This document shows, piece after piece, positions 7,460 through 31,203 of a stretch of DNA of 56,995 nucleotides. This DNA comes from an uncultured Verrucomicrobiales bacterium (GTDB lineage Bacteria > Verrucomicrobiota > Verrucomicrobiia > Verrucomicrobiales > DEV007). Every line of letters starts with the position of its first letter. Position 1 is the stretch's first letter. The stretch spans positions 1 through 56,995 of the forward strand of contig CALKOM010000024.1 in NCBI GenBank assembly GCA_938091905.1, written 5' to 3'. The notes beneath the pieces are model-generated. The model had not been told where the DNA came from, ran no database searches, and worked only from the letters and a program-made list of their open reading frames with translations. The position numbers were made by a program, and so were the translations under genes.

Positions 7460-7461
7460 GT

Positions 7462-10320: not shown

Positions 10321-10889
10321 CGGAAGATGATCGCAGAACACATTGAAAGAAGCGAAACAATTGGCAATGGCGTATAGAATGCCGTCGCGGTGTTGGGCTC
10401 CTTGCCGTGAAGAATAACGCGCTTCTTGTGTGGATGAATCAAAGTCTTGAGACCGATAGCATTCTTGGTGATTCGTCCTCGCAACGTCTTGCCAAATAAT
10501 CTGGCCGCATGAGGGAACGGTGAGAAGGATCATCCATTGTGGCGACGGGTCCTGCGCGCCTCCCAATTTGAAAGAGTGTTTCGGGAGTAGGGTGAAGTGG
10601 TTGTATGCTGTAAAGGATCGGCTTCGTGGTTGGGCTTCAATCGCCTGCTACGATCGGTTGGTCGTTCAAAGCATGGCAACATGGGGAGCCGAACTTAGAT
10701 CAAGAAAGCTATTGTTGCGATGAACTGGCTTCCAAGGTCGAGTTGTGCTCTTGCCCTGATGGCTTGAAGTTTACCGTCAGTGGTGCCAGGATTTAGTGCC
10801 ACGGCAGATGAGATTCCGATTCGATTAAGAACGTTATCTGGGTTGTTACCGTGACAGGTTTTCACCAATACGATGGCCCAAAGGAGGCC

Positions 10890-12452: not shown

Positions 12453-12613
12453 GTGTTTGTCTATGATCTCCAGTTTCGGTTTTCACTACCTACTTCTCTT
12501 GCTGATGGTATTCCCTCGTATTGTCTGCATAGGAAATGGCAACGCAGAAGAGGAGAACTACTGGGATGGTAGTTAATCTTACGTTGGATCTTGGGGTGCT
12601 GACCCAATTGGTC

Positions 12614-15600
12614 TTACTGCGCAGTCACCTTGAGACGTCCGTAGAGTGTTGGGGAATTGGCGCTGACAGGATTAACCGAGCGCATGACGACCGATTCCTG
12701 TGTGCCGTCAATCGCCGACTTCGACTGCGTGACGAGTCCGTCGCTTGCCCATGTTATTAAGTCTTTGCTAGTTTCTAGTGAAATGGTGGCGCCTGCAGTG
12801 TTGACCCGACTGACATACGTGACGGTGAAGAAAGTATCAATAGCTCCGTCCACTTCGAATTCGCCGGTTGAGGTGGTTAGGTATTCCCCGGGCGCATTGC
12901 CCTTCTTGGGATCGGTCGCCATGACATACTCGATGATGTTGGCCAACTGATCACTGTCATCATCAGCAAGGAGATCGGTGACGCCGTTCTCTGTCTGCCA
13001 TGCGCTCAATCCGCTAGGCTGTGGATTTCCTCCGCCGCCACTGATGGCAGCGCCGGCAGTCCAGTTGCCGCTATTGCTATAATTCTCGTCAATCTGGGAT
13101 GCTGACAGTTTCAGCGAGGATCCTTGGCCGTCGGCTTCTACTGGCCATGGTTCTTTATCGTTGTAACGAATGCTCACGAGTTCTTGGCCAGCGGCATCGG
13201 TGAGTGTGAGGCGCTCTCCGCTGTCATCCAGCTTGCCGCCGTATTCACCGATGACAGGATGGTCAGCGCCGTAGCGAGCCTCAAAGCCGGCTCGACTGCG
13301 TACGAGAATTGCGGTGGCTCCTGCTGCGAGAGTCTTCTCGGATAGGGTATCGAAATCAAAGCTGATTCCATTGGTGAATTGAATTCCAGCCAGGTCTGCC
13401 GGTTGATCGCCGGTGTTTGCTAGGATGATATATTCAAAGACACTGGCACTCGTGTAGCCGGCAGCGCGTTCGGCATCCGTTGGCGATGTGGGATGATACA
13501 TGATCTCTGTGATTCGGAGTTTGTCCGCTCCAACGGAAAAGGTGGCCTCATTGAGGGCAGACCATGTTATCCCGCCGAAGATGCTTTTGCTATAAAAGCG
13601 TGCCTTGACCGTCATGGTTTGGTCGATCGTGATTGGATCAGCGTATGCCACAGCACTATCGCTAATCTCGATTGCACCATTTTCATTGTAGGTAAATGGA
13701 TCCGAGCCATCGGTGGTGTAGAACATCTTGGAGGCGGGTTCCATCGTCAGTTGGAAGCCGCTGGATACGCTGCCGCCATGCTGATTGAATGCGGGAGGCA
13801 TCTTGCTTGGGAACAGGTCCCTATCTTCAAACTGTTGCAGAACGATTCCGGTCCGCTGAGTGAGATAAGTGTCTAACATCCACTCACGCTCGCCTCGCCA
13901 TTCTTCGATGGTGTGCGGAGTGCTGGAATTGTCATCACCCCAACGCGCGGTTTCCGCGTAGATGGCCATTTCGACTTCATCGGCGACCGACTGATAGAAA
14001 GGTCTGGTCTTCTCAGGTGATAAAATGCCTCCGTTATGAAACAGACGATGAGTGCGGTCTGCCCAGGCCACCTGAAACCACAGTAGATCTCTTAACGCGG
14101 CGTAGGGTTCTCCCACCCATTGGGTGTTGCGAGGCGAATTCATGTTGAGAGGAGAGCGGCTGCGATTGTTGCCCATCGTATTCTCAAAGTCCCACATGTA
14201 GTGCTTAAAGCCGGTACTCTCCTCGGTATTGAGGCGTCCGAACCAGAAGTTCTTGTTAGGCCAGTCCCAGTTGCCGCCCCAGAAATTCATGATCATATAG
14301 TCAATATAGTGGTCCTGATCGAGATACACTTTGAGATTAGGATTACGTGTTCCGTCAGGATTGAGTCCTTGTAGCGCCATGTAGTCAGCGTGGGTTTCGG
14401 CGCCTTTGGCATCGCGGACGTACTGTTGCCAGTCGCGTAGCCCGCTATTGTTAGGGTCGTTGCCATTCTCAGCTCCACCCGCGTTCTTCACGTCGCCGGA
14501 ATTTATAGAATCCCAATCACCGGCTTCGCCGCCATAGTAGGATGCCGAGAAATCTTCGTTTGGGCGCTGCGCTAGATTGTACAATCCCCAGTAGACGCCA
14601 TTGATGTAGAGATGCTGAAAGCCTCCTTGATTAGAATGATAACCTGCTTCGTGTGCCAAGCGCCGCCCAAATTCGTCACGGGTGTATTGAACCGTGGTTC
14701 CGGCAGCGCCCCAGGCATAGCCATCATTGGCCCCGGCACGAAAGATGATGGTATCAAAGTCTGAGACGGCACCTGGACGATTGACGATATCATGGCGAAG
14801 GCGCTCGACGCCGTATTCATTTTTGAAGAGCAATCGGAATGATTTCTTGTCCGTTAGGCTATAGTTGCGGAATGCTCCACCTTGAAGGCGCACACCGCAA
14901 TCGACTTGGAACTTGGAACTGCCGTCTGGGTTGATCCACTCAAAGGAGATCGGCCTTTCCCACTCAATGCCATGGCTGGTCGAATTCGTATAGATCCCCT
15001 TTGAACCGAAGAAGTCTGAGACATCTCCCACAAATGAAATCGTGGGAAGGAACCGGAGAGAGTCGATCATCTTGTCCGCATTGGGACCTGTAATCCGAGG
15101 ATCCATTTCATAGTCAGACCGATGGCTTCCCCATCTCTCGGGAAATCCGTCAGGCTGATCTGATTGATTCACGACATCGTTGTGAAAGATGTAGGTATGG
15201 GTGTCTGTGTTGGTGCTCTGCCAGCCGGATTTCTTGGCGATAGCCCTGACTACGGTGGTCGTCGGAATCGTTAAAGGCTCAGTGTATTCTTCAGCAGGAT
15301 TGAAGAGCGAACCTTTGGCAGGATCGGTGCCATCGATGGAGTAGAATATCGTCGCTCCGGCGGTTTCGGTCGTGATTTCCAACACGAAAGACTCATCGTA
15401 GAAGCCGCGGTTCACACTGAACTTCGTGTCAGCCACAAACCCGTCAATCCCACTTTCATTGGCTTCGCTTGGTGTGGCCTCTTGAAAAAACTGGAGTTCC
15501 TCGTTGAAGAAGCCGTAAGAAACGTCTCCGCGTTGCTCCGGGTAGGTGAACTCACTCAGGATGGTGCCATCTGGAGCGGAGAGGGCGAGATACTCACCAC

Positions 15601-15931
15601 CGCCATTGAGTTCGAAATTCGAGTGCAATTCACCGCTGGTGCGGTCTTTGTTAGATGCAAAGACGATCAGATAGCCTTTCGACTCAATCGTGACTTCCGG
15701 GAATGACCATTTCTGCAACATCTCTTGGTCATCGGTGAGCCCGTAACCTGCGAGCGCCACAGCAGCATCATCGGGATTGTAGATTTCAATCCAGTCGGGT
15801 GTGTCGCCATCGGCGTCGGCAGGAGCGTCGCTCCCGCTCGCCATGAATTCAGTAATGATGGGAGTCGCTTGAACTGCGGCCAGGGGAAGCATGAACGCAG
15901 TGAGCAGGGAAAGGTACGATTGAGGTTTCAT
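12614..15931 (-). CDS. Secreted lamin-tail domain / CotH kinase family protein
   Basis: Signal peptide; LTD (ITEFMA..DWIEIYNP); FN3-associated YSIDGTDP; CotH motifs HLYINGVYWGLYN, NWDWPNKN and MWDFE; second LTD (ITEIMYHP). Start at 15931 or 15940. Confidence 0.9.
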   Translation of the reverse strand: MKPQSYLSLLTAFMLPLAAVQATPIITEFMASGSDAPADADGDTPDWIEIYNPDDAAVALAGYGLTDDQEMLQKWSFPEVTIESKGYLIVFASNKDRTSGELHSNFELNGGGEYLALSAPDGTILSEFTYPEQRGDVSYGFFNEELQFFQEATPSEANESGIDGFVADTKFSVNRGFYDESFVLEITTETAGATIFYSIDGTDPAKGSLFNPAEEYTEPLTIPTTTVVRAIAKKSGWQSTNTDTHTYIFHNDVVNQSDQPDGFPERWGSHRSDYEMDPRITGPNADKMIDSLRFLPTISFVGDVSDFFGSKGIYTNSTSHGIEWERPISFEWINPDGSSKFQVDCGVRLQGGAFRNYSLTDKKSFRLLFKNEYGVERLRHDIVNRPGAVSDFDTIIFRAGANDGYAWGAAGTTVQYTRDEFGRRLAHEAGYHSNQGGFQHLYINGVYWGLYNLAQRPNEDFSASYYGGEAGDWDSINSGDVKNAGGAENGNDPNNSGLRDWQQYVRDAKGAETHADYMALQGLNPDGTRNPNLKVYLDQDHYIDYMIMNFWGGNWDWPNKNFWFGRLNTEESTGFKHYMWDFENTMGNNRSRSPLNMNSPRNTQWVGEPYAALRDLLWFQVAWADRTHRLFHNGGILSPEKTRPFYQSVADEVEMAIYAETARWGDDNSSTPHTIEEWRGEREWMLDTYLTQRTGIVLQQFEDRDLFPSKMPPAFNQHGGSVSSGFQLTMEPASKMFYTTDGSDPFTYNENGAIEISDSAVAYADPITIDQTMTVKARFYSKSIFGGITWSALNEATFSVGADKLRITEIMYHPTSPTDAERAAGYTSASVFEYIILANTGDQPADLAGIQFTNGISFDFDTLSEKTLAAGATAILVRSRAGFEARYGADHPVIGEYGGKLDDSGERLTLTDAAGQELVSIRYNDKEPWPVEADGQGSSLKLSASQIDENYSNSGNWTAGAAISGGGGNPQPSGLSAWQTENGVTDLLADDDSDQLANIIEYVMATDPKKGNAPGEYLTTSTGEFEVDGAIDTFFTVTYVSRVNTAGATISLETSKDLITWASDGLVTQSKSAIDGTQESVVMRSVNPVSANSPTLYGRLKVTAQ

Positions 15932-16139
15932 GAGAAACATGTTGGTTTGATTGAGGGCGAACGAAAGCAAATGATTGAAAAGTTAAACCGGGGAGCTGAG
16001 GCGCGGGTGCGGGGGGCATCAGCACACCTAGCCTTCAATACCCAATATATGGCTTTGGTTACCAAATTACTAGAGCCGTTTGCATTTGGATAAATGTCTC
16101 AGCGAGAAGAAAGAAACACTTGGGTGTCACCATCTGGCT

Positions 16140-17624
16140 CTAACGCTTCTTGAGGGGCGCTTTCTCTTTCGCTTTCCGGCGGCTCAGGTTTCTTTGATGG
16201 GGTGCCTGCAGTCGATCTTTGTCAATCAGCTTGCGGTCGTAGATTTCCCCGGGACGAATCGGGGAGTGCGCCGCCTCCGTGAGCTTGATTAGCTTCTTAA
16301 GCCGTTCGGGGTGATCTGCGGCGAGGTTGGTTTGTTCTTCGGCATCGGTGCTCAGGTTATACAATTCCCAGTCGCCCTTGTTGCGTCGATAGGCTTTCCA
16401 GTTCTGTTGCCGGACAGCCTTCTGACCCGCGTATTCCCAGTAGAGGTGATCGTGCTGGGCTTGCGCGCCGCCTTTGCCCGTCAGTGTTGGGAGAAAAGAA
16501 ATCCCATCGGTATTGGGGCACGTCGCCCTTGTTGCCTCAGCTAGGGTCGGCATCACGTCTGGATGGTATAGCAAATGGTCGCTGACAGACCCCGCATTGA
16601 TTCTGCCGGGCCAGCGGACGAGATAAGGCACTTTTAGACCGCCCTCATAGAGCGAACCTTTGCCCGCGCGAAATCGCTCACCGTTGGCAGGGTTTAGATT
16701 CGGGCCGAAGAATCCGTGAGGGCGTTCGTCGGACTTGAAGTAATCCTGCCCACCGTTGTCACCGCAGAGGAAGACAAGCGTCTTTTCATCCAATGTGAGC
16801 TCTTTCAGAAGCGCGATGATCTCTCCGAGTTGGTGGTCTACCATGTGCATATAGGCTGCATAGACCCGTGCATCACGATCGGTCTGTTGCCCGGCTTTCC
16901 ACGGTTTGTCTTTAAACAACTTCCAGGAGGGATCGTCTTCATCGATTCCCCAAAGCCCATGCGGTGGCGTCCATGGCAGGTAACAGAAGAAAGATCGGTC
17001 TTTGTTGGCTCGAATGAATCGGAGGGACTCCTGAAAGATTTCGGTCTGTGCGTGCGTGTCGCCTTCGTAGAAGCTCAAGCCGTCATTGCCAGCGAGCAGA
17101 ACCTCCTCGCTGTTTCGAATCAGATAGCTCGGATAGAACGTGTGGGCATGCACTTGGTCGTAGTAGCCGAAGAATTCATCAAAGCCATGCTTCTCCGGAA
17201 CGCCCGAGGTGCTGCGTCCACCAATGCCCCACTTCCCAAAGCCTCCTGTGGCGTAGCCCAGCGGTTTCAGCATGCTAGCCAAGGTGGGTTCATCCTCGCG
17301 GATCGGAGCAAAGCCGTTGTTCGAGCGGATCGACGTGTGGCCAGAATGCAATCCTGTTAGTAAGACGCACCGAGTCGGCCCGCAGACAGGCGCCCCGGCA
17401 TACGCATTGGTGAAACGCATGCCCTCGGCTGCAAATTGATCAATGTGAGGCGTGAGCAGATCAGGGTGGCCCATGTGGCCAGACTCGAAATACCCCCATT
17501 CATCCAGCATAAGATAAATGATGTTCGGTGGGGGTGCCGCCGAACGCGCTTGGTGAAGGACACCGAGCAGTGCGCACAGTGCTAGCAGGATTATTTCCTG
17601 CCTACTTGATTGGGGTGAGGTCAT
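16140..17624 (-). CDS. Sulfatase (arylsulfatase), secreted
   Basis: PNIIYLMLDEWGY, CGPTR, GKWG, GDNG, KGSLYEGG. Confidence 0.94.
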   Translation of the reverse strand: MTSPQSSRQEIILLALCALLGVLHQARSAAPPPNIIYLMLDEWGYFESGHMGHPDLLTPHIDQFAAEGMRFTNAYAGAPVCGPTRCVLLTGLHSGHTSIRSNNGFAPIREDEPTLASMLKPLGYATGGFGKWGIGGRSTSGVPEKHGFDEFFGYYDQVHAHTFYPSYLIRNSEEVLLAGNDGLSFYEGDTHAQTEIFQESLRFIRANKDRSFFCYLPWTPPHGLWGIDEDDPSWKLFKDKPWKAGQQTDRDARVYAAYMHMVDHQLGEIIALLKELTLDEKTLVFLCGDNGGQDYFKSDERPHGFFGPNLNPANGERFRAGKGSLYEGGLKVPYLVRWPGRINAGSVSDHLLYHPDVMPTLAEATRATCPNTDGISFLPTLTGKGGAQAQHDHLYWEYAGQKAVRQQNWKAYRRNKGDWELYNLSTDAEEQTNLAADHPERLKKLIKLTEAAHSPIRPGEIYDRKLIDKDRLQAPHQRNLSRRKAKEKAPLKKR

Positions 17625-17630
17625 TGGTGA

Positions 17631-19412
17631 CTACTCGAGCCAGTTGACGACGGTGTAGTAGGCACCCACTTCTCCATCCGTGAGTTTAAAGACGGGCGCG
17701 AGCGTGTAAGATCCCTTCTTAAGTTCGGCTTCGAACGAAACTTCAGCTGCATCTTGTGCAACGGGCTTGGTTTCCAAATCCTTGCCGTCAATGCGCAGCG
17801 TTCCATGGGTAGCATCGATCGCTTCCCCAGGAACGACGCGGAAGGCCTTGGAGGTGCCTGGCACGTTCTTTCCAGCAGGTAAAGAAGCGTTGATAGCGGC
17901 TCCTGATTCTGCTGGCCACCGGCGAAGGGAAATACGGTAATTGCCATCGCGCACGACTTTGACCGCCCAGTGCCCCATGTGCTTGGGATTGTCTTTCTCT
18001 TGTGACCGTTTAGCGCTGCGGATGGAGCCCTGATGCCAAGGCGGGTAGATCTTCTGGATCCAGTCGTGCGCTGTTAGAGTCACTTCGGGATGATCTGGGT
18101 GACCGAGGTAGATCTCCGTGGTCTGGGAGAAGGTGGGTTCAAGCTCGGCCCACCATTCCTCATAGAAGGCGCGCATCTTCGCGACAACTTCCGGGTGATC
18201 AGCGGCGATGTCGTTTCTCTGTCCGGGGTCAGCGGCGATCTCGTAGAGCTCCTCGCCCTTAATGAGCCGCCACTTCTTCGACATGACGGCAGAACCACGC
18301 CATTTGATAGGGGCACGCACACGCTGGGAGTCTGAAATAACGAAGCGATTCGGCCACAATACCTTCTCTTTGCTTGGATCGAGTAACTTTGCGATGGATA
18401 GGCCGTCGAACTTCACGGTCTCTGGCTTCTTTACTCCAGTCAGCTCTAACAACGTCGGAACGATGTCGACCATGTGTGTCAGTTCATTAACCTCGTGCTT
18501 CTTGTCCAGGCCGCCCGCAGGCCAGTGGACAAAGAAAGGGACTCGGTGGCCTCCGTCATACGGACTGCCTTTCCCCGCTTTCATGCCAGCGTTGTAGATC
18601 TTGGTGCCAGCGGCGGACCCGTTGTCGGTGGTGAAGATGAAGATGGTATCTTTTTCGATGCCTAGCGATTTCACCAATTCGCGTGTCTTGCCGATGTTAT
18701 CATCAATGTTAGTGATCATGCCATAGAATGCAGCGATCTTGTCAGATTGATCCTTGTACATGTCCAAATACTTCTGCGGCGTATGAAGAGGAGAATGAGG
18801 CGCGTTGAGCGAGATGTAGGCGAGGAAAGGCTTTTCGTCCTTGGCGCAGTTGGAGATGAAGGAGTTGGCCTGCTCGAAGAACACATCGGTGCAGAAACCT
18901 TTAGCGGGGACGATCTTTCCGTTGTGGAAATAGGAACCGTCGAAGTAGGCATTGTCCCAGACGTCTGGAGTCTGACCAACACCGCCACCGCCGTGCCGGT
19001 AAACCTCCGTGAAGCCGCGATCTTCCGGTCGGTAGGGGTAGTTGTCCCCGAGATGCCATTTGCCGAACATGCCAGTCTGGTAGCCACCATCCATAAACAT
19101 CTGGCCGATGGTGACCTCGTTCTCGCGAAGCATGGAGCGACCCATGATCGTATGCCAGACACCGGTACGGTTTGTCCAATGCCCCGTCAGGAGAGAGCAG
19201 CGGGTAGGCGAGCAGGTTGGTCCTACATGGTAATCACTCAAGCCGGAGGACTCGGAGGCAAGCTTATCGATATGAGGCGTTTTGATAATGGGGTTCCCCG
19301 TGCAGCCGAGGTCGCCGTATCCCTGATCATCAGTGATGACAAAGACGATATTGGTCGGGGCTGCTGCAAGGAGTCCTGCCGTGAGAATGTAGAAGAGAAA
19401 TGTTCGGGTCAT
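17631..19412 (-). CDS. Arylsulfatase with C-terminal extension, secreted
   Basis: NIVFVITDDQGYGD, CSPTR, GKWHLG, APHSP, TDNG. Confidence 0.95.
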   Translation of the reverse strand: MTRTFLFYILTAGLLAAAPTNIVFVITDDQGYGDLGCTGNPIIKTPHIDKLASESSGLSDYHVGPTCSPTRCSLLTGHWTNRTGVWHTIMGRSMLRENEVTIGQMFMDGGYQTGMFGKWHLGDNYPYRPEDRGFTEVYRHGGGGVGQTPDVWDNAYFDGSYFHNGKIVPAKGFCTDVFFEQANSFISNCAKDEKPFLAYISLNAPHSPLHTPQKYLDMYKDQSDKIAAFYGMITNIDDNIGKTRELVKSLGIEKDTIFIFTTDNGSAAGTKIYNAGMKAGKGSPYDGGHRVPFFVHWPAGGLDKKHEVNELTHMVDIVPTLLELTGVKKPETVKFDGLSIAKLLDPSKEKVLWPNRFVISDSQRVRAPIKWRGSAVMSKKWRLIKGEELYEIAADPGQRNDIAADHPEVVAKMRAFYEEWWAELEPTFSQTTEIYLGHPDHPEVTLTAHDWIQKIYPPWHQGSIRSAKRSQEKDNPKHMGHWAVKVVRDGNYRISLRRWPAESGAAINASLPAGKNVPGTSKAFRVVPGEAIDATHGTLRIDGKDLETKPVAQDAAEVSFEAELKKGSYTLAPVFKLTDGEVGAYYTVVNWLE

Positions 19413-19417
19413 GAAGG

Positions 19418-20983
19418 CTAGAGCTTAGGTTCTGAAGTATTCTTCTTGGTCAAGGATTTGAAGTGTTCGCTCGTGATCCACTCAAGGTCTTTCCAGTAGC
19501 CGGTGTCGTTTGGTTGGACTGGGCCTTCCGTGGTGCGTCCTCTGGTGATGATCTGGTTGATCTGTTGTGTCATGCGATCGACCACCTTCGGGTGCTGTTT
19601 GGCAACGTCTTTCTCCTCTGCCTTATCTTCGGCGAGTTGATAGAGTTCTGCGGGGCGTTCCTTACCAGGTAGGATCAGCTTCCAGTTACCCTCTGTGATG
19701 GCATAGCGGCGATTATTTCCGTGGTTGATCAGAGGCAAACGCTGATGCTTGTGGTTTGGGTCGCATAGCACAGCGGCGAAGCTTTGGCTGTCTTCTCCGG
19801 CATTCGCCGGCAATGAGGCCTCGACTAATTCGGCAAAGGTCGCTAACAGATCCACTTGCCCAACCGCACGGTCACACTGTCGCGAAGGTTCCACGATTCC
19901 ATCGGGCCAGCGTAGGAGCATGGGAACACGGTGCCCGCCTTCATAGACGGACCGTTTGCCTTCTCGATAGCCGCCTCTGCTGTCATGCGCATGAGTTTTA
20001 AGGCTTTGCTTCCAGCGATTCTCAGGACCGTTGTCACTGGTGAAGACGATCAGGGTATTCTGATCGAGTTTCTTTGTTTCAAGGAAATTTAAGATCCTCC
20101 CCACGTGGTGATCGGTCTCAATCAGGAATTCACCATAAGCGCCGCATTTGCCTTGCCCATGAAACTCGGGCAGCGGGCAGACGGGATAGTGTGGCGACGT
20201 GTAAGGGAGATAGAGAAAGAATGGCTTTCCATTCTTCGCCTCGGCGGCCTTGCTGTTCATCCACTCGATTGCTTTGTCCGTGAAGCGGGTGAGGCATTGG
20301 TTATCGATAAAGTCGGGCGCGATCTCGAAGCCTTCACGGTTAAGTGCTTTCTGGGTCTCTGCTGGTGCCGCGTCATAGGGCGGCATGATACGATAGTCTG
20401 ACGCTCGTTTGTTCGGCTTCTTATTGGAGTAGAGGGTTGGTGGGACTGCGGCGTGCCTGCCTTCGAACCATGCTAGAATGCCATAATTCAATGAGGCTGG
20501 GATGCCGTAGAAGTAGTCAAACCCCTTGTCCAACGGCATGTCCTGGACGGGTTGAGACCAGTCACGGTTCTCGGGAGTTCCCGGGAAATCCATGCCGAGG
20601 TGCCACTTGCCGACCATGGCTGTGTGGTAGCCTTGGTCATGTAAGAGCGATGCTAGAGTTGTGCGGCCGTCTGAAATCAAGCACGCTTTCTCCGCACCAA
20701 ACACGCCCGTCTTCAGATGGGTTCGCCATGCGTATCGACCTGTAAGCAAGCCATAGCGAGAAGGCGTGCAGACAGAGTCTGAGCTGTGGGCGTTGGTGAA
20801 CGAGATGCCTTCTTTGGCCAAACGATCCAAGTTGGGTGTTTGGAACTTAGCGTCGGGGTTCAACGCAGAGACATCACCGTAGCCTTGGTCATCCGTGTAG
20901 ATCACGACGATGTTAGGTTTGGCCGCGAACGCCACCGGCGATGCTAGGATGATCGCGAGGCCAATGGAGAGTAGGTGTTTCAT
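19418..20983 (-). CDS. Arylsulfatase, secreted
   Basis: Signal peptide MKHLLSIGLAIILASPVAFA, DDQGYGD, CTPSR, GKWHLG. ATGA overlap with the upstream sulfatase. Confidence 0.95.
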   Translation of the reverse strand: MKHLLSIGLAIILASPVAFAAKPNIVVIYTDDQGYGDVSALNPDAKFQTPNLDRLAKEGISFTNAHSSDSVCTPSRYGLLTGRYAWRTHLKTGVFGAEKACLISDGRTTLASLLHDQGYHTAMVGKWHLGMDFPGTPENRDWSQPVQDMPLDKGFDYFYGIPASLNYGILAWFEGRHAAVPPTLYSNKKPNKRASDYRIMPPYDAAPAETQKALNREGFEIAPDFIDNQCLTRFTDKAIEWMNSKAAEAKNGKPFFLYLPYTSPHYPVCPLPEFHGQGKCGAYGEFLIETDHHVGRILNFLETKKLDQNTLIVFTSDNGPENRWKQSLKTHAHDSRGGYREGKRSVYEGGHRVPMLLRWPDGIVEPSRQCDRAVGQVDLLATFAELVEASLPANAGEDSQSFAAVLCDPNHKHQRLPLINHGNNRRYAITEGNWKLILPGKERPAELYQLAEDKAEEKDVAKQHPKVVDRMTQQINQIITRGRTTEGPVQPNDTGYWKDLEWITSEHFKSLTKKNTSEPKL

Positions 20984-22482
20984 TTCTTGCTCTTCCAAAG
21001 TACGATCTTGTCGATGTCATTCTTGGCCGGTGAGCCTTCCGTGCTGCGACCGCGCTCGATATCTGAGGTGAGTTGTGCCAGTAACTTTGCCGCAATCTCA
21101 GGCTTGGATGCGTAGAGGTTGGTGGTTTCGCCAGGATCAGCTTCCATGTCATAGAGCTGAGCTTCCGGACTGCCCGCAGGAACTTTGTTCTCTCTTGGGG
21201 CGGTCCAACCACCAGAGCCACGGGCTAGCAGTAACTTCCATTTGTCCTGACGATAGGCAAAGCATCCGTCGATCGAATGATGGATGACGCCGACGCGCGA
21301 TGATATAATCGGCTCACCACGAAGGGCGGCTTTGAAACTGACGCTGTCCTCACCGGCTCCGTCTGGAACTTTGGCTCCGATGAGATCAGCGCACGTGGCC
21401 ATGAGGTCTGCTTGGCAAATTAGCTGATCAGACGTCGACTGGGGTTGGATGACTTTGGGCCACCGGGCAATGAAGGGAACGCGATGCCCGCCATCCCAGA
21501 GGTCGGCTTTCGATCCCCGGAGAAGGGCGCTGGGATAATGACCCTTCTTCTCAAGTTCATCAATTCCAGCAGCATTGGAACAGCCGTTGTCCGTTGTGAA
21601 GATCACGAGCGTGTTTTCACTAAACCCCGCGTCATCGATCGCCTGAACGATATCACCAACAATGGCGTCCGTTTGCATGACAAAGTCACCATACTTGCCA
21701 AGTGGGCTCTTACCTTGCCATTCTTTGGACGGCAAGATGGGTGTGTGTGGTGAGGTGAAGGCGACGTAGGCGAAGAAGGGTTTGGAGGCTTTCTGTCGGG
21801 AAATGAATTCCACAGCTTTCTTCCCGATCATGGGTAAGACGTCGATTGCTTCGAAATCAGGTTCGGCAGGGCCTTTGCGGTGGAAAGCCTTGGTCGCCGT
21901 GGCTTCCCCAACGAAGCGATCATTCTCGATGTAGATGTAGGGCGTCATGTCAAGAGAGGCTGAGATCCCATGAAAGTAGTCGAACCCGCGATCGACCGGA
22001 CCGTTCTTGACCTTACCTTTCCAGTCGATGTTCTTGGGGTGGTGGCCTTTGGTGCGGGTATCGTCTGTGAACGGCATGTCCAGCCCCAGATGCCATTTGC
22101 CGATTGCTCCCGTTGTGTAGCCCTGCTGTTTCAAGAATCCCGCAACGGTAAGACGATCTTTGGCGATCAAAGGTTCACCGAAGCCGTAGAGAACGCTTTT
22201 CTGGAGATGCGTTCGCCAGTTATAGCGTCCTGTCAGAATTGCGTAGCGTGTCGGCGTGCAGACAGACGACGTCGAGTGGGCATCCGTAAAGGTCATGCCT
22301 TGCTCAGCTAGCTTGTCGATGGCTGGCGTGGCGATCTTGCCTCTCTCAGGATTGAGGCATTGGGCATCGCCATAGCCGAAGTCATCGGCGAGGATGAAGA
22401 CAACGTTGGGATTCGAGGCGTCTTGAGCGCCCAAAACTGAAAGCAGTGTTAGATAGAGGGCGAGGTTTAGTAGTGGCTTCAT
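20980..22482 (-). CDS. Arylsulfatase, secreted
   Basis: Signal peptide, ILADDFGYGD, CTPTR, GKWHLG, GGHRVP. Confidence 0.95.
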   Translation of the reverse strand: MKPLLNLALYLTLLSVLGAQDASNPNVVFILADDFGYGDAQCLNPERGKIATPAIDKLAEQGMTFTDAHSTSSVCTPTRYAILTGRYNWRTHLQKSVLYGFGEPLIAKDRLTVAGFLKQQGYTTGAIGKWHLGLDMPFTDDTRTKGHHPKNIDWKGKVKNGPVDRGFDYFHGISASLDMTPYIYIENDRFVGEATATKAFHRKGPAEPDFEAIDVLPMIGKKAVEFISRQKASKPFFAYVAFTSPHTPILPSKEWQGKSPLGKYGDFVMQTDAIVGDIVQAIDDAGFSENTLVIFTTDNGCSNAAGIDELEKKGHYPSALLRGSKADLWDGGHRVPFIARWPKVIQPQSTSDQLICQADLMATCADLIGAKVPDGAGEDSVSFKAALRGEPIISSRVGVIHHSIDGCFAYRQDKWKLLLARGSGGWTAPRENKVPAGSPEAQLYDMEADPGETTNLYASKPEIAAKLLAQLTSDIERGRSTEGSPAKNDIDKIVLWKSKK

Positions 22483-23872: not shown

Positions 23873-23955
23873 TATTAAATTGAAGTCATGGAGTTTACTT
23901 CATGTGGAAAGCAACGCCTGGCGTTGCTTTCATTTTTTTAGAATCCAGAAATGTT

Positions 23956-26900
23956 ATGATTTCACAAGGTATGGGCCGGAAAGTGTTGGGGCTATGGCAC
24001 TTGGCGCTGGTGGCTGCTTGTTCGGGTCTGTCTCTAGCCAATCCGATTATTTCAGAATTTGCGGCTTCACCCGCAGAAGGTCTTGTCGATTCGGACGGCG
24101 ACGCCTCTGATTGGATTGAGCTGAGCAACCACGAGTCAGATTCGGTTGATTTGTCCGGCTATTATCTGTCCGATGATGTCGCGACACCAACCAAGTGGCA
24201 GTTCCCCGAGGGGGTCATGCTAAGTGCCGATGGCTATTTGCTAGTCTTTGCCTCAGGCAAGGATCGCGTCAGTCCGGTGGAGGAATTGCACACTAATTTC
24301 CGCCTAGCCAGCGGAGGCGAGTCTCTGGGGCTGTTCGCTCCTGATGGTGTCACCGTTGTTCACGAATATCAGCCAAGCTATCCCAGGCAATTTTCTGGGG
24401 TCAGCTACGGCATTAATGGCGATTCCGAGGGTTATTTCAACCACCCGTCTCCAGGAGAGGCCAACACGCCCTTGTCTTACATCGGCATTGTTGCGGATAC
24501 TCGGTTCAGCGTGGACCGAGGCTTCTTTGATGACCCTATTCAGGTCGATATCACGACGAGCACGGAAGGCGCTGCCATTTATTACACGACGGATGGAAGC
24601 AAGCCGGATCTTGGGACGATATTCTCGGGTCCTAACGGAACGCTTGTTGAAGGGCCAGTGGTTATTGATAAGACGACCGTCCTTCGAGCGGCAGCATTCA
24701 AGGATGACTTTCAACCTTCAAACACGGATACTCAGTCGTATATCTTCATTGAAGATGTGATCCGACAGCCGGATCAACCCGAAGGCGCACCCGAACGTTG
24801 GGGGACGCGAGTGACGGACTACGAGATGGATCCGAGAGTGGTCGATGATACCGCCTATTCGAAAGATCTGCGAAAGGGCTTTCAAGATATCCGAAGCATG
24901 TCGCTCGTCGTTGAATCCGATGACTTCTTCGGTAGAAGCGACGGTATCTATGCGAATCCGCAGCAAGATGGTCGCGAGTGGGAGCGTGAGATTTCGATGG
25001 AATTGATCAATCCTGATGGCAGCCCAGGATTTCAGATCGATTGTGGAATTCGCATTCATGGGAATGGGTCGCGAAGCCCGGGTGGTCAACCGAAGCACGG
25101 CTTTCGGGTGGAGTTTCGTGGAGACTATGGAGAGGGTACCTTAAAGTATCCGCTCTTTCCTGAATCTCCCGTGACGGAGTTTGATAATCTCATCCTACGT
25201 TCGCAGAATGCCCATGGCTGGACACGGAGTTCACAGATCTCAAATAACGTGGGCACCAGTGAACGTGAACAGTCGCAATACATTCGTGATAGCTTTGCTA
25301 GAGATTTGCACACGGCCATGGGACATCAAGGAGGTGAAGCCACGTTTGTTCATCTCTTCATCAATGGCTTATACTGGGGACTCTACAACCCGGTGGAGTA
25401 TCCCCGCGAGTTTCATGGCGAGCAACACTTCGGCGGCAGCCCGGAAGATTACGATTCGATTAATCGCAGGCCTGTTGCAAATGGTGGCAAAGGGTCTCAT
25501 GCGATTGACGGCACCAAAGACGCCTGGGCCGCTATGCAAGAGCTGGCGGACTCTGGTCTGGAAACGCCGGAGAAACTCGCTGCCATGCAAGAGCACATGG
25601 ATTTGGACAATCTCATCGACTACATGCTTGTCCACCAATACTTGGGAAGCCGGGACGGACCGGAAGTGTTTCACTCTAATAACATGCGCGCCCTCCGTCG
25701 TACTCGGGGGGAAACTCCAGGTCAGTGGCAATGTTATCTATGGGACATGGAGGCAAGTATGTTTGAAATTAATGTCACGCGAAACATCAATGTTGACGAC
25801 CCTGACACGTTGGTGAGGGTCTATACGAAACTTCGAGAGAATCCGGAGTTTCTCATGCGCTATGGCGATCACGTGCATCGTCATTTCTTCAATGATGGCA
25901 TCATGACACCTGGGCCGGCGGCGGCTTTGTGGGAGAAGCGCGCTAGAGAAATTTTTAATGCTATCGTTGGTGAATCGGCACGTTGGGGTGACTTTCGGCG
26001 GTCAAGTCGGCCCTTCACTAGGGACGCTGAATGGATGGACGAAAGGATGCGTTTGTTAAATGAATATTTCCCATCGCGGGCGCGGTTTCTTGTCAGGGAG
26101 TTTAAGGAAAACGGACTCTACCCAGAAACCATTGCTCCGCATTTCAACCAGCACGGCGGTGAAGTAGAGGCAGGTTTCATCCTCACCATGGAAGCGGGAA
26201 CGATCTTCTCGCCACAGCCTGGCAACTTCTACTACACCCTTGATGGGACGGACCCAAGGCTTCCAGGCGGTGGGCTCTCCGCGTCCGCTATTCTCAATGA
26301 AAGCGGCGTCGCACTCACCACCAGCACCACCGTTAAAGTCCGCTTGAGAGATGGTGATGCTTGGAGCGCTTTGAATGAGGCCTTCTTCTATGTCGATGCT
26401 CTACCCGCGAGTGGCGATAACATCGTTATCAGTGAGATTATGTATCATCCGGCAGAGGAATCTGATGCCGAGTATATCGAACTGCAGAATATGAGCGATC
26501 AACGTGTTCATCTACGGGGACTGCACTTACAAAGGGTGGGTGGCGAAGGCGTTGAGTTCAGTTTTGATCAATCAGAGCTGGCTCCGGGAGAAGTCTTGTT
26601 AGTGGTGAGAGACCCTGAAGCATTTGCTCGCGCTCACGGCGATGATGTCGCGCTCGAAGGCGTCTGGTCTGGTGGGTCTCTGAGCAACAACGGGGAAACC
26701 ATCACGTTGAAACACAACCGCACGACGTTATCGATAATCCACTACAATGATAGTAATTCATGGCCAGTGGAGGCGGATGGCCAAGGCATGAGCCTGACAC
26801 GAAACGGTTCTGAATGGCAGGCTTCAGTGCCGTCTCCTGGAGTGACAACCCCTTCGCAAGGGCCACCGCCCGAGACCTTCAGGATCTCGTCGATCACGCG

Positions 26901-27090
26901 AACGGAGGGAATGGTTCTCATACAATGGCCAATGGTGGAAGGGGCGACGGATCAGGTAGAGTTTAGTCAGACGCTCGACGGCATTTGGGAAGTAAGAGAG
27001 ATGCTTTCTTCTAGTGAAGGACTTTTCGAAGAGGCTATTGGTCGTTCCGGAGACGGCTTCTATAGAGTGGTTCGAACCCCGACACCGTGA
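23956..27090 (+). CDS. Secreted lamin-tail domain / CotH kinase family protein (paralogue of 12614..15931)
   Basis: Signal peptide; ISEFAA..DWIELSN; VADTRFSVDRGFF; HLFINGLYWGLYN; LWDME; AIVGESARWGD; ISEIMYHP. Start at 23956 or 23971. Confidence 0.9.
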   Translation: MISQGMGRKVLGLWHLALVAACSGLSLANPIISEFAASPAEGLVDSDGDASDWIELSNHESDSVDLSGYYLSDDVATPTKWQFPEGVMLSADGYLLVFASGKDRVSPVEELHTNFRLASGGESLGLFAPDGVTVVHEYQPSYPRQFSGVSYGINGDSEGYFNHPSPGEANTPLSYIGIVADTRFSVDRGFFDDPIQVDITTSTEGAAIYYTTDGSKPDLGTIFSGPNGTLVEGPVVIDKTTVLRAAAFKDDFQPSNTDTQSYIFIEDVIRQPDQPEGAPERWGTRVTDYEMDPRVVDDTAYSKDLRKGFQDIRSMSLVVESDDFFGRSDGIYANPQQDGREWEREISMELINPDGSPGFQIDCGIRIHGNGSRSPGGQPKHGFRVEFRGDYGEGTLKYPLFPESPVTEFDNLILRSQNAHGWTRSSQISNNVGTSEREQSQYIRDSFARDLHTAMGHQGGEATFVHLFINGLYWGLYNPVEYPREFHGEQHFGGSPEDYDSINRRPVANGGKGSHAIDGTKDAWAAMQELADSGLETPEKLAAMQEHMDLDNLIDYMLVHQYLGSRDGPEVFHSNNMRALRRTRGETPGQWQCYLWDMEASMFEINVTRNINVDDPDTLVRVYTKLRENPEFLMRYGDHVHRHFFNDGIMTPGPAAALWEKRAREIFNAIVGESARWGDFRRSSRPFTRDAEWMDERMRLLNEYFPSRARFLVREFKENGLYPETIAPHFNQHGGEVEAGFILTMEAGTIFSPQPGNFYYTLDGTDPRLPGGGLSASAILNESGVALTTSTTVKVRLRDGDAWSALNEAFFYVDALPASGDNIVISEIMYHPAEESDAEYIELQNMSDQRVHLRGLHLQRVGGEGVEFSFDQSELAPGEVLLVVRDPEAFARAHGDDVALEGVWSGGSLSNNGETITLKHNRTTLSIIHYNDSNSWPVEADGQGMSLTRNGSEWQASVPSPGVTTPSQGPPPETFRISSITRTEGMVLIQWPMVEGATDQVEFSQTLDGIWEVREMLSSSEGLFEEAIGRSGDGFYRVVRTPTP

Positions 27091-27436: not shown

Positions 27437-29158
27437 ATGTTTGCTGCCCTCGCTTTCAGAATCCACCGGTTTCAGCAATCACGGCTCGCCTACGTTCTGA
27501 GTTTCCTACTTATCACGCTCCAACGGTCACCGGTCATTACGTATTTGGCGAAGTTCCAACAGATGCTCGGCAAGCCGATCGTTCAAGTCGCTCGGGTAGG
27601 AGTGCCATTGGTAGCCTACATTGGTGGAACGCACGCGGTGACCGGTGCGACTGGGGTGATTCCTGCTGGCGGTTCCGCCAATCCTGCGGAAGCTGTAGTT
27701 GGTGAGAGCTTTGTGTGGGTCTTTCGTGCCACCGGCAATGACGTGCATGCGAACTCGTATTCAGTGAATGGTTTACCCGCAGGTATGGAGAAATCCCAAC
27801 AAATACTCAATGGCGGTGTGAGTAGCTTCGCCGGCGTGCCAGAGGAAGTCGGGACTTTCGCCGTGGAGATCATTGCTTGGCGTCGGGAGAATCAGAGAGG
27901 AACGAGAACTCCCGCCTATGAGCTCACCTTAAATGTTGTTCCAGGAGACCCGCCGACCATTGCCGCACAACCAGAGGGCGGCGTGTTTGATCTCGGTGCT
28001 GATGTAAGACTCGGAGTCACAGCTGAAGGTCATGGGCTTCACTATCGCTGGCACAGGGATGATGAGAAAATTTCGAGCACAGTTAAAGCTTGGATTGATG
28101 AAAATACCGCTCGGCGCGTTCTCGTGCCGACTGAAGATCTGGGGCGGAGTTGGCGTAGTGATCTTGAGTTCGATGACAGCGCGTGGTTGTCCGGTTCTGG
28201 AGGCATTGGTTATGAACGTTCCACCGATGACATTTTAGCCCCATTTATTGGCATTGATGTGGAATCAGAGGCGTTCAATAAACGCACGTCGACGATGGTG
28301 CGCATTCCATTTGAACTGAGTGAGGATGACCTTGATCGGCTTAACGATCTCAAGCTGCGTGTCCAGTATGACGATGGTTTCATCGCCTTCCTGAACGGCA
28401 GTTCCGTTGCTAGTGTGAATGCGCCTTCGTCGCTCTTTCTTTCCTGGAATTCGAAAGCCACTGATAGTCACGGTGATGCTGCAGCAGTCGAGTTTGTGGA
28501 AATCGATCTCAGTGAGCACGTGGATTCGTTGAAAATCGGACCGAACTTGCTGGCCATTCAGGCGCTCAATGAATCTGCAAATAGCTCCGGCTATTTGCTC
28601 AACGTGGAATTGTTAGGTGGTCGTAATGTGGATAGTCCTGTTCTTGAGCTCACTGATCTCACAGAGGCGGATACGGGAGGCTATACGGTTGAGGTCTCAA
28701 ATAGTTCCGGGAGTCTGGTCAGTGAAACGGCAAAGATTGCCATTAGTGGGTCAGGTGCCTCGGGCTATATCGCTTGGATGGAACGGCATTGGCCAGACGC
28801 CCCGAACATCGAAGCGACTGCCGAGGCTCAAGATCCAGACGCTGATGGTCTTATCAACCTCTTTGAGTATTACTATGATAGTAATCCGCTGAAGGCTGAT
28901 TCTTCGGCTGCGCCTACCGCTGTCATGAAGCGCATCGGTAAGGGCAAACAGGTCGTTGTGAGATTCCCGTCAGGCGTGGCAACGGACTACGCTCCGATCT
29001 ACGAAATCAGTAATGATTTGCAGGCGGACACGTGGCAAGTTCTTGAGAACGGTATCGATGGTGTGGAAATCGAAAGTAGCGACCTGAAATCAATTATTCG
29101 GCTTCCAGTGAACGAAACGAGCCGCTATATAAGGCTAAGGCTTCAATTGAGCCAGTGA
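27437..29158 (+). CDS. Extracellular Ig-like / beta-sandwich domain protein
   Basis: GLPAG putative-Ig motif, PPTIAAQP...LHYRWH...DTGGYTVEVSNSSG (Ig fold) with an inserted YDDGFIAFLNG domain, and DPDADGLINLFEY acidic motif. Start uncertain. Confidence 0.8.
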   Translation: MFAALAFRIHRFQQSRLAYVLSFLLITLQRSPVITYLAKFQQMLGKPIVQVARVGVPLVAYIGGTHAVTGATGVIPAGGSANPAEAVVGESFVWVFRATGNDVHANSYSVNGLPAGMEKSQQILNGGVSSFAGVPEEVGTFAVEIIAWRRENQRGTRTPAYELTLNVVPGDPPTIAAQPEGGVFDLGADVRLGVTAEGHGLHYRWHRDDEKISSTVKAWIDENTARRVLVPTEDLGRSWRSDLEFDDSAWLSGSGGIGYERSTDDILAPFIGIDVESEAFNKRTSTMVRIPFELSEDDLDRLNDLKLRVQYDDGFIAFLNGSSVASVNAPSSLFLSWNSKATDSHGDAAAVEFVEIDLSEHVDSLKIGPNLLAIQALNESANSSGYLLNVELLGGRNVDSPVLELTDLTEADTGGYTVEVSNSSGSLVSETAKIAISGSGASGYIAWMERHWPDAPNIEATAEAQDPDADGLINLFEYYYDSNPLKADSSAAPTAVMKRIGKGKQVVVRFPSGVATDYAPIYEISNDLQADTWQVLENGIDGVEIESSDLKSIIRLPVNETSRYIRLRLQLSQ

Positions 29159-29259: not shown

Positions 29260-31203
29260 ATGAATACCTTGTTAAAAATACTTATGGCCATTGGCCTGAT
29301 CACCGCGACTACCATGGCTCAGCGCGATTTCGTAAGTGGGAATAATGAGCGCATCGAGCCTGAAGATCTAGACTTCGAGATGGGAGTGGCAGCCATTCCG
29401 GATAGAGCCCTGTTCGAGAAGTTGTCTTATCAAGGTCCCGATGCAGGACGAGACTCCTACTTGGCCGGAATAGAGTTTGTGAAGTTCATTTTAGCGACAC
29501 CCGAGACCACAGGAGGCAAGGTCTATTTCATGAACACCAAGAATTACAAAGGCCACCCGCCATTCATGGGTGAGGTCGGGTTGAGCCGAGGCCGCGGTCG
29601 ACCAAGTGGCGTGCGTGGAGCCATATGCTACATGCCACGCTTGAAGGCTCCGAACGGTGATTCTGGCCTCTACATCTTCGACTTTCAACCTCGCGACTCC
29701 TACACGTTCGAGGAAATCCAATCCTATCATGCTACCTTGGTTGCGAGGGCTCCGATGCTCAAAGGTAAACTCGCGTTTCATCCGTTAGAAGGAAATCTTG
29801 ATCAGTATGAGACGGATAAGACCAAGTACGAGGCGGCAAAGTTGCCAGTCTATTTGGACTCTGACAAGCGTACGAATATTGTCTACCTTCCTCTGAATCT
29901 GGGTGAGTCGTTTGGGCTTCTTCGTATCATGGATGAAGACACTCGTCCTTCTCCTCGCGATATTGTCATCTGCAAGACTTTGCCGAATCAAATGCCAAGG
30001 ATGGCTGGCGTGATTTCTGAGGTGCGCCAGACACCGCTCTCTCATGTGAATCTGCGCGCTATCCAAGACAAAGTCCCCAACGCGTATATCAATGGGGCTC
30101 TCGACAAGGAAGCTATCATGTCACTTGTTGGCAAACTGGTAAGTTATCAGGTCACGTCCCAGGGATACAAGTTACGTGAAGCTACCAAGGCCGAAGTCGA
30201 CAACCATTTCGAGGCCATCCGACCTGCCGAAGGCCAATCGCCCAAGCGTGATCTTTCCGTGGATAAGATCAGTCCGCTCAAAGACATCAAGTTCGATCAG
30301 TCGGGAAGTTTCGGTGTCAAGACGGCCAATTTGGCTGCCCTGAGCACCTTCAAGTTTCCTGAAGGCACTGTCCCGGACGGGTTTGGCATCCCATTCCATT
30401 TCTATGATGCTTTCATGAAGCACAATGACTTCTACGCCAGGGCAGACAAGTTGATCAATGATACCGAGTTAAAAGAGAAGCGTCGCGAATTGGAACGCGC
30501 CTTAAAGAAGTTCCGCAAAGCCATTGAAGGCGGCGACATGCCAGACGAATTGAATACAGCCCTAGCCAAGCTTCAAAAATCTTACCCAGCCAAGCAATCG
30601 ATTCGCTGTCGTTCTAGCACCAACAATGAAGACCTGCCTGGCTTTAGCGGTGCGGGTCTCTACGATTCCTTTACCCATAAGCCCGACGAAGGCCACCTCT
30701 CCAATACCGTCCAACAGGTGTTCGCTAGTCTATGGAATTTCCGCGCCTTCGAAGAGCGCGAATTTTACCGTATCGATCACAAGGCTGCTGCTATGGGGGT
30801 GCTCGTACATCCCAACTTCAAAGGCGAGAAGGCCAACGGCGTCGCCGTGACTGAAGACGTGCTCTACGAATCCCAAGGGTTCTACTATCTCAACACCCAG
30901 ATCGGTGAAGACCTGGTCACGAACCCCGACGAAGATTCTAGCCCGGAAGAACTTTTGTTAGGTTGGTACGAAAGAGATGGCCAAGAGATTGTTCGCGCTT
31001 CCAAGGAAGCATCGAAAGGAAAGTCGCTTCTGAGCGACGAGCACCTCACCCAATTACGGGACCACCTAGGGACGGTTCACAGCCAATTTGCCAAGCTCTA
31101 CGAGCGCGACCCTGATGACCTGAAGTTCGCCATGGAGATCGAGTTCAAGATCGACAAGGCCGACAAGCTCGTCATCAAACAGGCAAGACCCTGGGTGTTT
31201 TGA
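29260..31203 (+). CDS. Exported PEP/pyruvate-binding (PPDK_N) dikinase-like protein with phospho-His domain N-terminal to the ATP-grasp domain
   Basis: Signal peptide MNTLLKILMAIGLITATTMA; His motif AGVISEVRQTPLSHVNLRA (H262); nucleotide-binding motifs GVKTANL, VPDGFGIPF, RSSTNNEDLPGFSGAGLYDS, VFASLWN, MEIEFK and IKQARP. Confidence 0.88.
   Translation: MNTLLKILMAIGLITATTMAQRDFVSGNNERIEPEDLDFEMGVAAIPDRALFEKLSYQGPDAGRDSYLAGIEFVKFILATPETTGGKVYFMNTKNYKGHPPFMGEVGLSRGRGRPSGVRGAICYMPRLKAPNGDSGLYIFDFQPRDSYTFEEIQSYHATLVARAPMLKGKLAFHPLEGNLDQYETDKTKYEAAKLPVYLDSDKRTNIVYLPLNLGESFGLLRIMDEDTRPSPRDIVICKTLPNQMPRMAGVISEVRQTPLSHVNLRAIQDKVPNAYINGALDKEAIMSLVGKLVSYQVTSQGYKLREATKAEVDNHFEAIRPAEGQSPKRDLSVDKISPLKDIKFDQSGSFGVKTANLAALSTFKFPEGTVPDGFGIPFHFYDAFMKHNDFYARADKLINDTELKEKRRELERALKKFRKAIEGGDMPDELNTALAKLQKSYPAKQSIRCRSSTNNEDLPGFSGAGLYDSFTHKPDEGHLSNTVQQVFASLWNFRAFEEREFYRIDHKAAAMGVLVHPNFKGEKANGVAVTEDVLYESQGFYYLNTQIGEDLVTNPDEDSSPEELLLGWYERDGQEIVRASKEASKGKSLLSDEHLTQLRDHLGTVHSQFAKLYERDPDDLKFAMEIEFKIDKADKLVIKQARPWVF

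Follow-up and report, generated by a model that had tools for sequence, protein, structure and literature searches.

The stretch of DNA analysed here, called the window below, is contig C24 (CALKOM010000024.1; 56,995 nt) of the 6.19-Mb, 95% complete genome of an uncultured Verrucomicrobiales bacterium (GCA_938091905.1). It carries a gene for a 647-aa protein that belongs to a family of dikinases with a phosphohistidine swivel domain (Table 1). A first-pass annotation of the window had described a phosphohistidine motif with H262, a C-terminal ATP-grasp domain and no pyruvate-binding barrel, all of which were recovered: the open reading frame (ORF) holds both TPLSHVNLRA, with H262, and RSSTNNEDLPGFSGAGLYDS (R451-S470), the Pfam scan gave PPDK_N at 350-644 (E 3.4e-30) as the sole match, and the same scan did not find the pyruvate-binding barrel (PF02896) in the dikinase. 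An AlphaFold model built from 113 sequences shows three domains (pLDDT 90.3, pTM 0.84). The model and the structural matches place the His domain before the ATP domain, which is the order that had been claimed by analogy to the plant glucan water dikinases (GWD) and phosphoglucan water dikinases (PWD). The domain preceding the His domain is also present, but it measures about 175 aa (30-205) and not the ~210 aa first given. Scans for promoters and terminators around the gene stayed at chance level. Short RNA contigs matching parts of the gene occur in four seawater metatranscriptomes, whereby DNA carry-over is possible; they were not counted as evidence.

Table 1. Coordinates of the dikinase gene, its parts and other features, given as positions in the window or, for the last two rows, on other contigs of the same genome.
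Feature	Position	Strand	Basis or remark
647-aa gene of the His-swivel dikinase family, product predicted to be exported	29260..31203	+	ORF, Pfam, model, structural matches
Predicted Sec/SPI signal peptide, aa 1-20, cut likely before Q21	29260..29319	+	sequence and hydrophobicity heuristic
N-terminal alpha/beta domain, aa ~30-205	29347..29874	+	model pLDDT 92; putative acceptor site
Codons of K75 and H99	29482-29484; 29554-29556	+	conserved pair, N-terminal domain
Phosphohistidine swivel domain, aa 206-325	29875..30234	+	structural matches; H262 codon 30043-30045
C-terminal ATP-grasp domain, aa 333-647	30256..31200	+	PF01326; match to 5hv1
Ig/beta-sandwich protein gene, context only	27437..29158	+	without kinase domain (Pfam)
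LTD-Fn3-CotH-LTD kinase gene, context only	23902..27090	+	two genes upstream of the dikinase
VTC-DUF4956 pair	C57:32950-43701		divergent from two CotH genes
VTC-DUF4956 pair	C134:59181-61944	-	followed by a gene resembling HlyD-type adaptors (by resemblance)

The catalytic part of the protein was compared with solved structures by the VIA search. Residues 208-320 matched phosphohistidine swivel domains with Z scores of 10.6 (2e28), 10.1 (enzyme I, 2wqd) and 8.6 (pyruvate phosphate dikinase, PPDK, 2fm4), and residues 333-647 matched rifampin phosphotransferase (RPH, 5hv1) with a Z score of 28.5 and an rmsd of 2.6 over 289 aligned residues. In an alignment to 5hv6, which is offset by the construct tag, K354, R451 and S470 correspond to K22, R117 and T136 of RPH, the roles of which are described in PMC4844700. 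The protein thus combines the two hallmarks of the His-swivel superfamily, namely an ATP-grasp domain with the equivalents of K22, R117 and T136 and a swivel domain with a conserved His. Judged from these conserved residues, the phosphate relay from ATP to the histidine is likely intact.

A word-seeded search scored 7,996 proteins, 3,739 of them at E<=0.001, and the close-homologue alignment comprises the query and 112 of the best 120 of these 3,739 (113 rows), whereby eight were excluded, among them the self cluster and three partial matches. The residues H262, K354, R451, S470, E626, E628, Q641 and R643 are invariant in all 113 rows. H262, whose conservation had been presupposed by the first-pass annotation, is likewise present in every one of the 281 aligned modules that span this position (from 262 longer proteins) and in all 12 members of a mostly distant set; in a further set of 80 related loci it was not counted as conserved, as the motif had been the search pattern and the argument would be circular. 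A full profile search yielded 1,611 clusters at E<=1e-30, and many of the top matches are proteins of 700-3,800 aa that hold the whole dikinase module. The distribution of the family is patchy: it was found in 5 of 301 Verrucomicrobiota genomes (window's genome included), 18 of 301 Planctomycetota genomes and 14 of the 31 genomes of a relatives set, among them all five congeners, and there are also records from Poribacteria, Acidobacteriota, Gammaproteobacteria and Chloroflexota. The closest named relatives are Verrucomicrobiales metagenome-assembled genomes (MAGs). A search of a phage collection gave two weak ATP-grasp matches only. No description of the family was found in the literature searched, outside of which lay subscription papers and supplements; PPDK_N domains that may belong to this family are mentioned for giant proteins of Omnitrophota in a preprint (10.1101/2023.11.21.568195).

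The window's genome itself harbors four full-length or near-full-length family copies and four partial ones, and all six PF01326 matches in it are family members. The seven further loci lie on C9, C125, C89, C94, C101, C155 and C74. The C9 copy has EF-hand-like repeats, the C125 copy an extra N-terminal module and the C89 copy represents a distant subfamily (NAHVAIL motif), while the C155 copy is split over two frames and the others are partial.

Export was scored by a heuristic of our own, not by SignalP, which takes a 9-residue hydrophobicity window of at least 2.0 within the first 50 aa as positive. The N-terminus of the dikinase, MNTLLKILMAIGLITATTMA followed by Q after the presumed cut, is signal-peptide-like without a lipobox or twin-Arg motif, and no membrane-spanning stretch was found in the 627-aa mature chain. 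The heuristic was positive for 110 of 119 close homologues and for 186 of 262 longer module-bearing proteins. A site consisting of a small residue and Q follows the hydrophobic stretch in 108 of the 119 close homologues, of which four have lipobox-like and none twin-Arg motifs. Furthermore, the module is fused to SLH (2), CWB2 (3), T9SS tail (3), RTX repeat, FN3, cadherin and PKD domains among 41 family proteins scanned, and to FG-GAP repeats, dockerin-like tails and EF-hands among 13 further ones. Because the module is fused to surface anchors, export of the family is supported independently of the N-termini, so that both lines agree with the export originally claimed. Altogether, we consider it very probable that the protein is an exported, active His-relay enzyme. 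Among the fusions, a Planctomycetota subfamily of ~1,800 aa combines FG-GAP repeats, the dikinase module and a dockerin-like tail (L292, L293, L294, L297), with up to four copies per genome, and several giant proteins (P0122, P0123, P0272-P0288) score about twice as high as a single module, which is consistent with two dikinase modules per chain.

The ATP-grasp part alone gave 14 NCBIfam matches, each far under its cut-off. The best of them is PEP synthase (PPS), which raises the possibility of a mis-annotated or split PEP synthase residing in the cytoplasm, all the more as no canonical PPS or PPDK was found in the genome. This match reaches 86.9 bits against a cut-off of 598, the barrel is missing and the single PF02896 match of the genome lies on another contig. 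Phylogeny points in the same direction. In an ATP-grasp tree of 34 of 70 extracted sequences (LG+G4), the family forms a clade (99/98), and its grouping with PPS was rejected (p-AU 0.0096), which bears out the earlier statement that the protein is not a PEP synthase. Taken together with the conserved signal peptides and surface anchors, a PEP synthase is scarcely credible. The same tree separates the family, a group of Streptomyces proteins and the GWDs from PPS, PPDK and RPH-like enzymes with moderate support (87/92, not starred), and a His-domain tree of 39 rows, which carries a long-branch warning, agrees in having the dikinases with reversed domain order on one side; neither tree includes a PWD sequence. 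The Streptomyces group is the sister of the family in both (86/86 in the ATP-grasp tree, 96/88 in the His tree). The GWD clade (100/100) excludes the family, although a constraint making family and GWD sisters was not rejected (p-AU 0.128). In a quick mixture-model tree of 54 rows the deep nodes were unresolved (support 44).

For the comparison with GWD, real GWD sequences were collected by scanning metagenome contigs with the motif that the first-pass annotation had quoted, whereby 97 loci led to 16 long ORFs, whose labels as plant, algal or bacterial are inferred from sequence and context. The quoted motifs were indeed present in the recovered GWD1 sequences. All 16 score 97-172 bits on PF22973 (GWD1_pHisD), and 12 carry the Ig domain of GWD1. 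PF22973 was matched by 62 of 72 family His domains (best E 2.4e-6), none of which lists the PEP-utilisers mobile domain, whereas the window's own His domain reaches 17.2 bits and stays under the curated cut-off of 27. By hhalign, the family His domain aligned with GWD at P 92 (E 5.9e-7), with the Streptomyces group at P 99.5 and with PPS/PPDK/RPH at P 26. Thus, matches, profiles and the His tree uphold the proposed GWD-like character of the His domain. The ATP domain gave a different picture, since by profile it is nearer to RPH-like enzymes (E 5.7e-40) and to PPS (1.1e-23) than to GWD (4.6e-16), and of the five groups whose ATP domains were compared with the family, just one is further away than GWD. 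A search of 301 Acidobacteriota genomes with PF22973 gave no match, but no control match either, and is uninformative.

Neither Ig_N_CWD1 (PF23166) nor CBM20 was detected in the window protein or in 54 family proteins scanned, in which one weak F5/8 and two LamG domains were the only glycan-type modules. The central domain of StGWD1 is described as consisting of 20 helices (PMC13553574), and in place of an all-helical domain of ~440 aa the family has an alpha/beta domain of 175 aa. The family is not a GWD, because it lacks the starch-binding modules and has an alpha/beta front domain; it resembles GWD in layout, and the two probably share a common ancestry. These data also bear on the acceptor, for which the first-pass annotation had favored a glycan. 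An exported dikinase that phosphorylates a polysaccharide, either the cell's own envelope glycan or an algal substrate, in the way GWD acts on starch, would fit the domain order, the His domain being nearer to GWD than to PPS, PPDK or RPH, and the position of the reverse-order dikinases in both trees. The absence of starch-binding modules, the alpha/beta front domain and the ATP domain that lies further from GWD than from RPH-like enzymes or PPS speak against it. Bacterial GWDs have already been noted in print (PMC6260743), and in the bacteria with real GWD1 we found the gene beside glycogen genes, another point that does not suit a glycan dikinase at our locus. We regard a glycan acceptor as unlikely. 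One of the recovered loci (L195:788-8997, minus strand) presents an intron-free operon of bacterial type with a glycogen debranching-like gene, a full GWD1 (two PF23166 domains, PF22973 126 bits) and a second GWD/PWD-like dikinase with an N-terminal TIM-barrel-like domain; at another (L182), GWD1 lies beside an amylase-like gene.

Plasmid searches led to Streptomyces proteins with the His-before-ATP order and the TPLSH motif. A search from one of them returned 1,148 matches, the best 120 of which are all 665-682 aa long and come from Streptomyces where named, and only 1 of these 120 was positive for the signal heuristic. Profile comparison of the Streptomyces group with the family gave an hhalign P of 99.9. 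Because these cytoplasmic sisters have the same domain order, the His-before-ATP order is not specific to glucan enzymes. At three Streptomyces loci (L096:4127-8807, L261:1-3872 and L097), genes for an ATP-grasp protein, the dikinase and an MFS transporter lie in a row, and no literature on such clusters was found. This gene pairing resembles that of TalD and TalE, the latter of which is described as a PPDK-like enzyme that phosphorylates a dipeptide (PMC6482885). The Streptomyces cluster is widespread and includes a PAS-HTH regulator; its product is probably a phosphorylated small molecule.

The front domain, modelled alone, is an alpha/beta domain with a pLDDT of 92, for which no counterpart emerged: no Pfam family occurred in more than two of 76 members, Foldseek gave no match at E<=0.001, VIA none at Z>=5 among 48,161 chains (best Z 4.8), Atlas scores did not exceed 0.80, and a PDB profile search returned partial hairpin matches only. 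A new fold is not proven by this absence of matches. All 113 close homologues retain K75 and H99, and among the longer proteins the two residues persist in 260 of 269 and 269 of 273 cases, respectively. They are also the sole invariant columns among 42 diverse front domains, a result that is partly circular, as a K..H pattern had selected 66 of 72 sequences, and thinning of these 66 left the 42. Because it occupies the position of the central domain of GWD and holds the conserved K75/H99 pair, we read the front domain as the putative acceptor site, in which K75 and H99 may be catalytic.

The same pair could instead hydrolyse the phosphohistidine. The protein would then be an ecto-nucleotidase with the net reaction ATP -> AMP + 2 Pi, serving phosphate scavenging or ATP quenching. 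With ATP itself as the target, the problem of ATP supply outside the cytoplasm would vanish, and the display on long surface stalks and the fact that the gene is usually without a conserved partner would be in accordance with this; StGWD1 is reported to send ~80% of its ATP to hydrolysis in vitro (PMC13553574). PHPT1, a human phosphohistidine phosphatase with Lys21 and His53 in its site (PMC4817053), was among the structural matches of the front domain (2nmm), but with a Z score of 3.3, an rmsd of 5.1 over 88 aligned residues and rank 23 the match is at noise level. Neither did the profiles support a PHPT1-like front domain: PF05005 matched no family gene in five genomes and the 42-sequence front-domain profile did not recover PHPT1 in the PDB, so that the resemblance is no more than a lead. 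A three-domain relay also appears elaborate for mere hydrolysis, and the cytoplasmic sisters in biosynthetic operons, which share K75/H99, are unlikely to waste ATP. An ecto-nucleotidase is therefore quite unlikely.

As to the genomic context, the first-pass annotation had placed the dikinase beside exported kinases and had suggested an undescribed module with the CotH and Ig genes upstream. The CotH gene does encode a kinase, whereas the Ig/beta-sandwich protein, the second neighbor, has no kinase domain. In the flanks fetched for the 80 related loci, CotH occurred in two, which belong to a single MAG and have it 5-6 kb downstream of the dikinase. Around the orthologues of the five congeners (9-20 kb fetched), CotH was present in none and an Ig gene lay upstream in one. 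In the window's genome, CotH is near one of eight family loci, and there are 70 CotH matches, most of them in frames of 900-2,500 aa. The chance level was estimated with our own profile, which marked 61 ORFs as CotH-like, in an ORF set that includes spurious frames: of the 1,760 long ORFs, 89 (5.1%) have a CotH-like ORF at no more than 2.2 kb, and 207 (11.8%) at no more than 8 kb. With an adjacency matched by 5.1% of ORFs and the scarcity of CotH at related and congeneric loci, a CotH-Ig-dikinase module was rejected. The N-terminal leader of the Ig/beta-sandwich protein is unusually long (~70 aa) and recurs in its G609 orthologue (L151:2547-4313), and a PhoD-type phosphatase gene lies directly downstream of the orthologue of one congener (L052:10329-11687), which is the case in 1 of the 80 loci.

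The surrounding sulfatases, which had been seen as a sulfatase island linked to the dikinase, were not taken as a functional link either: there are eight matches on the window's contig and 126 in the genome, and sulfatases were found at 14 of the 80 loci, in sulfatase-rich taxa. The 126 matches would suit a host in which a glycan dikinase acts on polysaccharide, but no glycan-enzyme neighbor recurs across phyla among the 80 loci. On the minus strand of the window, positions 4570-22482 comprise a run of seven sulfatases, a second CotH gene (12614-15970) and tricarboxylate transporter genes for TctA and a fused TctC-TctB (7462-8835).

A recurrent neighborhood was found elsewhere. A pair of VTC and DUF4956 genes lies directly upstream of the dikinase in 9 of the 80 loci. 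These fall into two phyla, each with its own gene order: DUF4956-VTC-dikinase in four Planctomycetota loci and VTC-DUF4956-dikinase in five Acidobacteriota loci. The named strain Stieleria marina K23_9 has the DUF4956-VTC-dikinase order (L058). Among 301 evenly drawn Planctomycetota genomes, VTC is present in 16 of 18 family-positive genomes versus 66 of 283 others (Fisher p 2.7e-8, without correction for kinship or genome size), and it adjoins the dikinase in 6 of the 18, one of which is the seed genome. Five fetched dikinase-VTC loci show the trio with no CotH in any of them, and four other dikinase loci are without VTC; conversely, among 20 further VTC loci that had been chosen by hand for their long contigs, 10 have CotH within ~6 kb and none has a dikinase. 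In Gram-positive bacteria, pel loci are described as having CotH, a polyphosphate polymerase and DUF4956 as an accessory set (10.1101/768473). Thus, the proposed connection to CotH does not hold as local adjacency and returns in another form, with the dikinase occupying the place of CotH beside VTC-DUF4956 in other genomes.

The VTC context also suggests a role in polyphosphate handling, in which exported polyphosphate would serve as donor or acceptor downstream of its synthesis and export by VTC-DUF4956. The direct adjacency, the EF-hands on VTC-linked family members, HlyD or TolC-type genes beside 6 of the 14 VTC loci with scanned flanks and the cationic conserved site (K75, H99) would be compatible with this. 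All residues of the nucleotide site are kept, though, most members including that of the window are not beside VTC, and VTC activity in these bacteria is putative. Formation of ATP from AMP, Pi and polyphosphate via a phosphohistidine would moreover run energetically uphill, which counts against such a role. We therefore consider it very unlikely.

The explanation we tentatively prefer, although its details are somewhat more likely to be wrong than right, is that of an exported His-relay enzyme that hands phosphate via the K75/H99 front site to a non-starch target in the envelope, likely a protein or peptide. The dikinase would leave the cytoplasm by Sec export and, as suggested by the chemistry of PPDK, RPH and GWD, convert ATP + H2O to AMP + Pi, with the beta-phosphate retained on His262. 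The swivel domain would carry this phosphate to the Lys75/His99 site of the front domain, from where it would be passed to the acceptor, and the genomic context suggests VTC-DUF4956 as a possible extracytoplasmic source of phosphoryl energy. Two independent clues from context favor a proteinaceous acceptor: the dikinase fills the slot of CotH, and ATP-grasp amide ligases are the gene partners of its cytoplasmic sisters. Where the refuting observations named by the first-pass annotation were examined, the opposite was found, with H262 conserved, the grouping with PPS rejected and signal-like N-termini in place.

Several points weigh against this explanation. The activity of the relay is a prediction, and the enzyme would need an ATP source outside the cytoplasm, for which the VTC link suggests where to look. 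VTC is not near the window's gene, as the two VTC-DUF4956 pairs of the genome lie on other contigs, and 71 of the 80 loci have no directly adjacent pair; the uncorrected statistics and hand-picked comparison loci mentioned above add to this. The pel-locus context of the CotH trio fits a glycan equally well. The parallel between the Streptomyces loci and TalD/TalE is one of gene pairing. Finally, the front domain of the Streptomyces sisters matches that of the family weakly (conditional E 4e-5, full E 0.18), with hhalign probabilities of 0.5-2%; in a search of ~24,000 sequences with the Streptomyces front domain, the top three matches were nevertheless family members (E 0.18-1.5).

More broadly, and doubtfully, the family may constitute a second, CotH-independent system of extracellular phosphorylation. 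Its secreted and surface-anchored His-relay dikinases, which would belong to the reverse-order lineage of the starch dikinases and have a new acceptor fold, would then be exchangeable with CotH at the output end of a VTC-DUF4956 machine, the exported polyphosphate of which would drive phosphorylation outside the cytoplasm. An exported, surface-anchored family of more than 1,000 clusters would imply that the envelopes of marine PVC bacteria, of Poribacteria and of other groups host an unrecognised phosphate chemistry, and it makes the phosphoryl-donor source of extracytoplasmic kinases testable. The window's protein is a good test case, being encoded by a single gene, with a 627-aa mature chain, a high-confidence model and clear mutants (H262, K354, K75, H99). 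The family would also be a bacterial sister lineage of GWD whose acceptor domain differs, a point of relevance to the origin of starch phosphorylation. New in this analysis are the trees with real GWDs, the Streptomyces sister group, the K75/H99 pair, the rejection of the CotH module and the counts for the VTC link.

In comparison with known systems, the family shares with GWD1 and PWD the order of acceptor domain, His swivel and ATP-grasp domain, a related His domain and similar SH-x-x-x-R-A and EDL-x-G-x-x-GAGLYDS motifs, but it is a separate clade of exported proteins of half the length, without CBM45-type Ig domains and without the helical central domain. PEP synthase (TIGR01418) and PPDK have homologous ATP-grasp and swivel folds, whereas the family lacks their barrel, has the reversed order, is exported and does not group with them. 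The Streptomyces proteins annotated as "PEP/pyruvate-binding domain" proteins (e.g., WP_331760287.1) have the three-domain order, TPLSH and the K/H pair of the front domain in common with it, and differ by the lack of a signal peptide, the biosynthetic-cluster context and a front domain of weak similarity. CotH kinases, as part of the CotH-VTC-DUF4956 trio of pel loci, are likewise exported phosphotransferases in the same slot beside VTC-DUF4956, but they are enzymes of the protein-kinase type and unrelated in sequence to the dikinase family. In RPH, TalE and HpeHI, as in the family, a dedicated acceptor domain replaces the pyruvate barrel. RPH provides the closest solved ATP-grasp domain (5hv1), yet its ATP domain comes first and its His domain last, and its acceptor domain is unrelated to that of the family. 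These and other non-pyruvate His-swivel kinases act in the cytoplasm. The papers cited here, as far as their accounts go, likewise describe His-swivel dikinases as acting on intracellular substrates.

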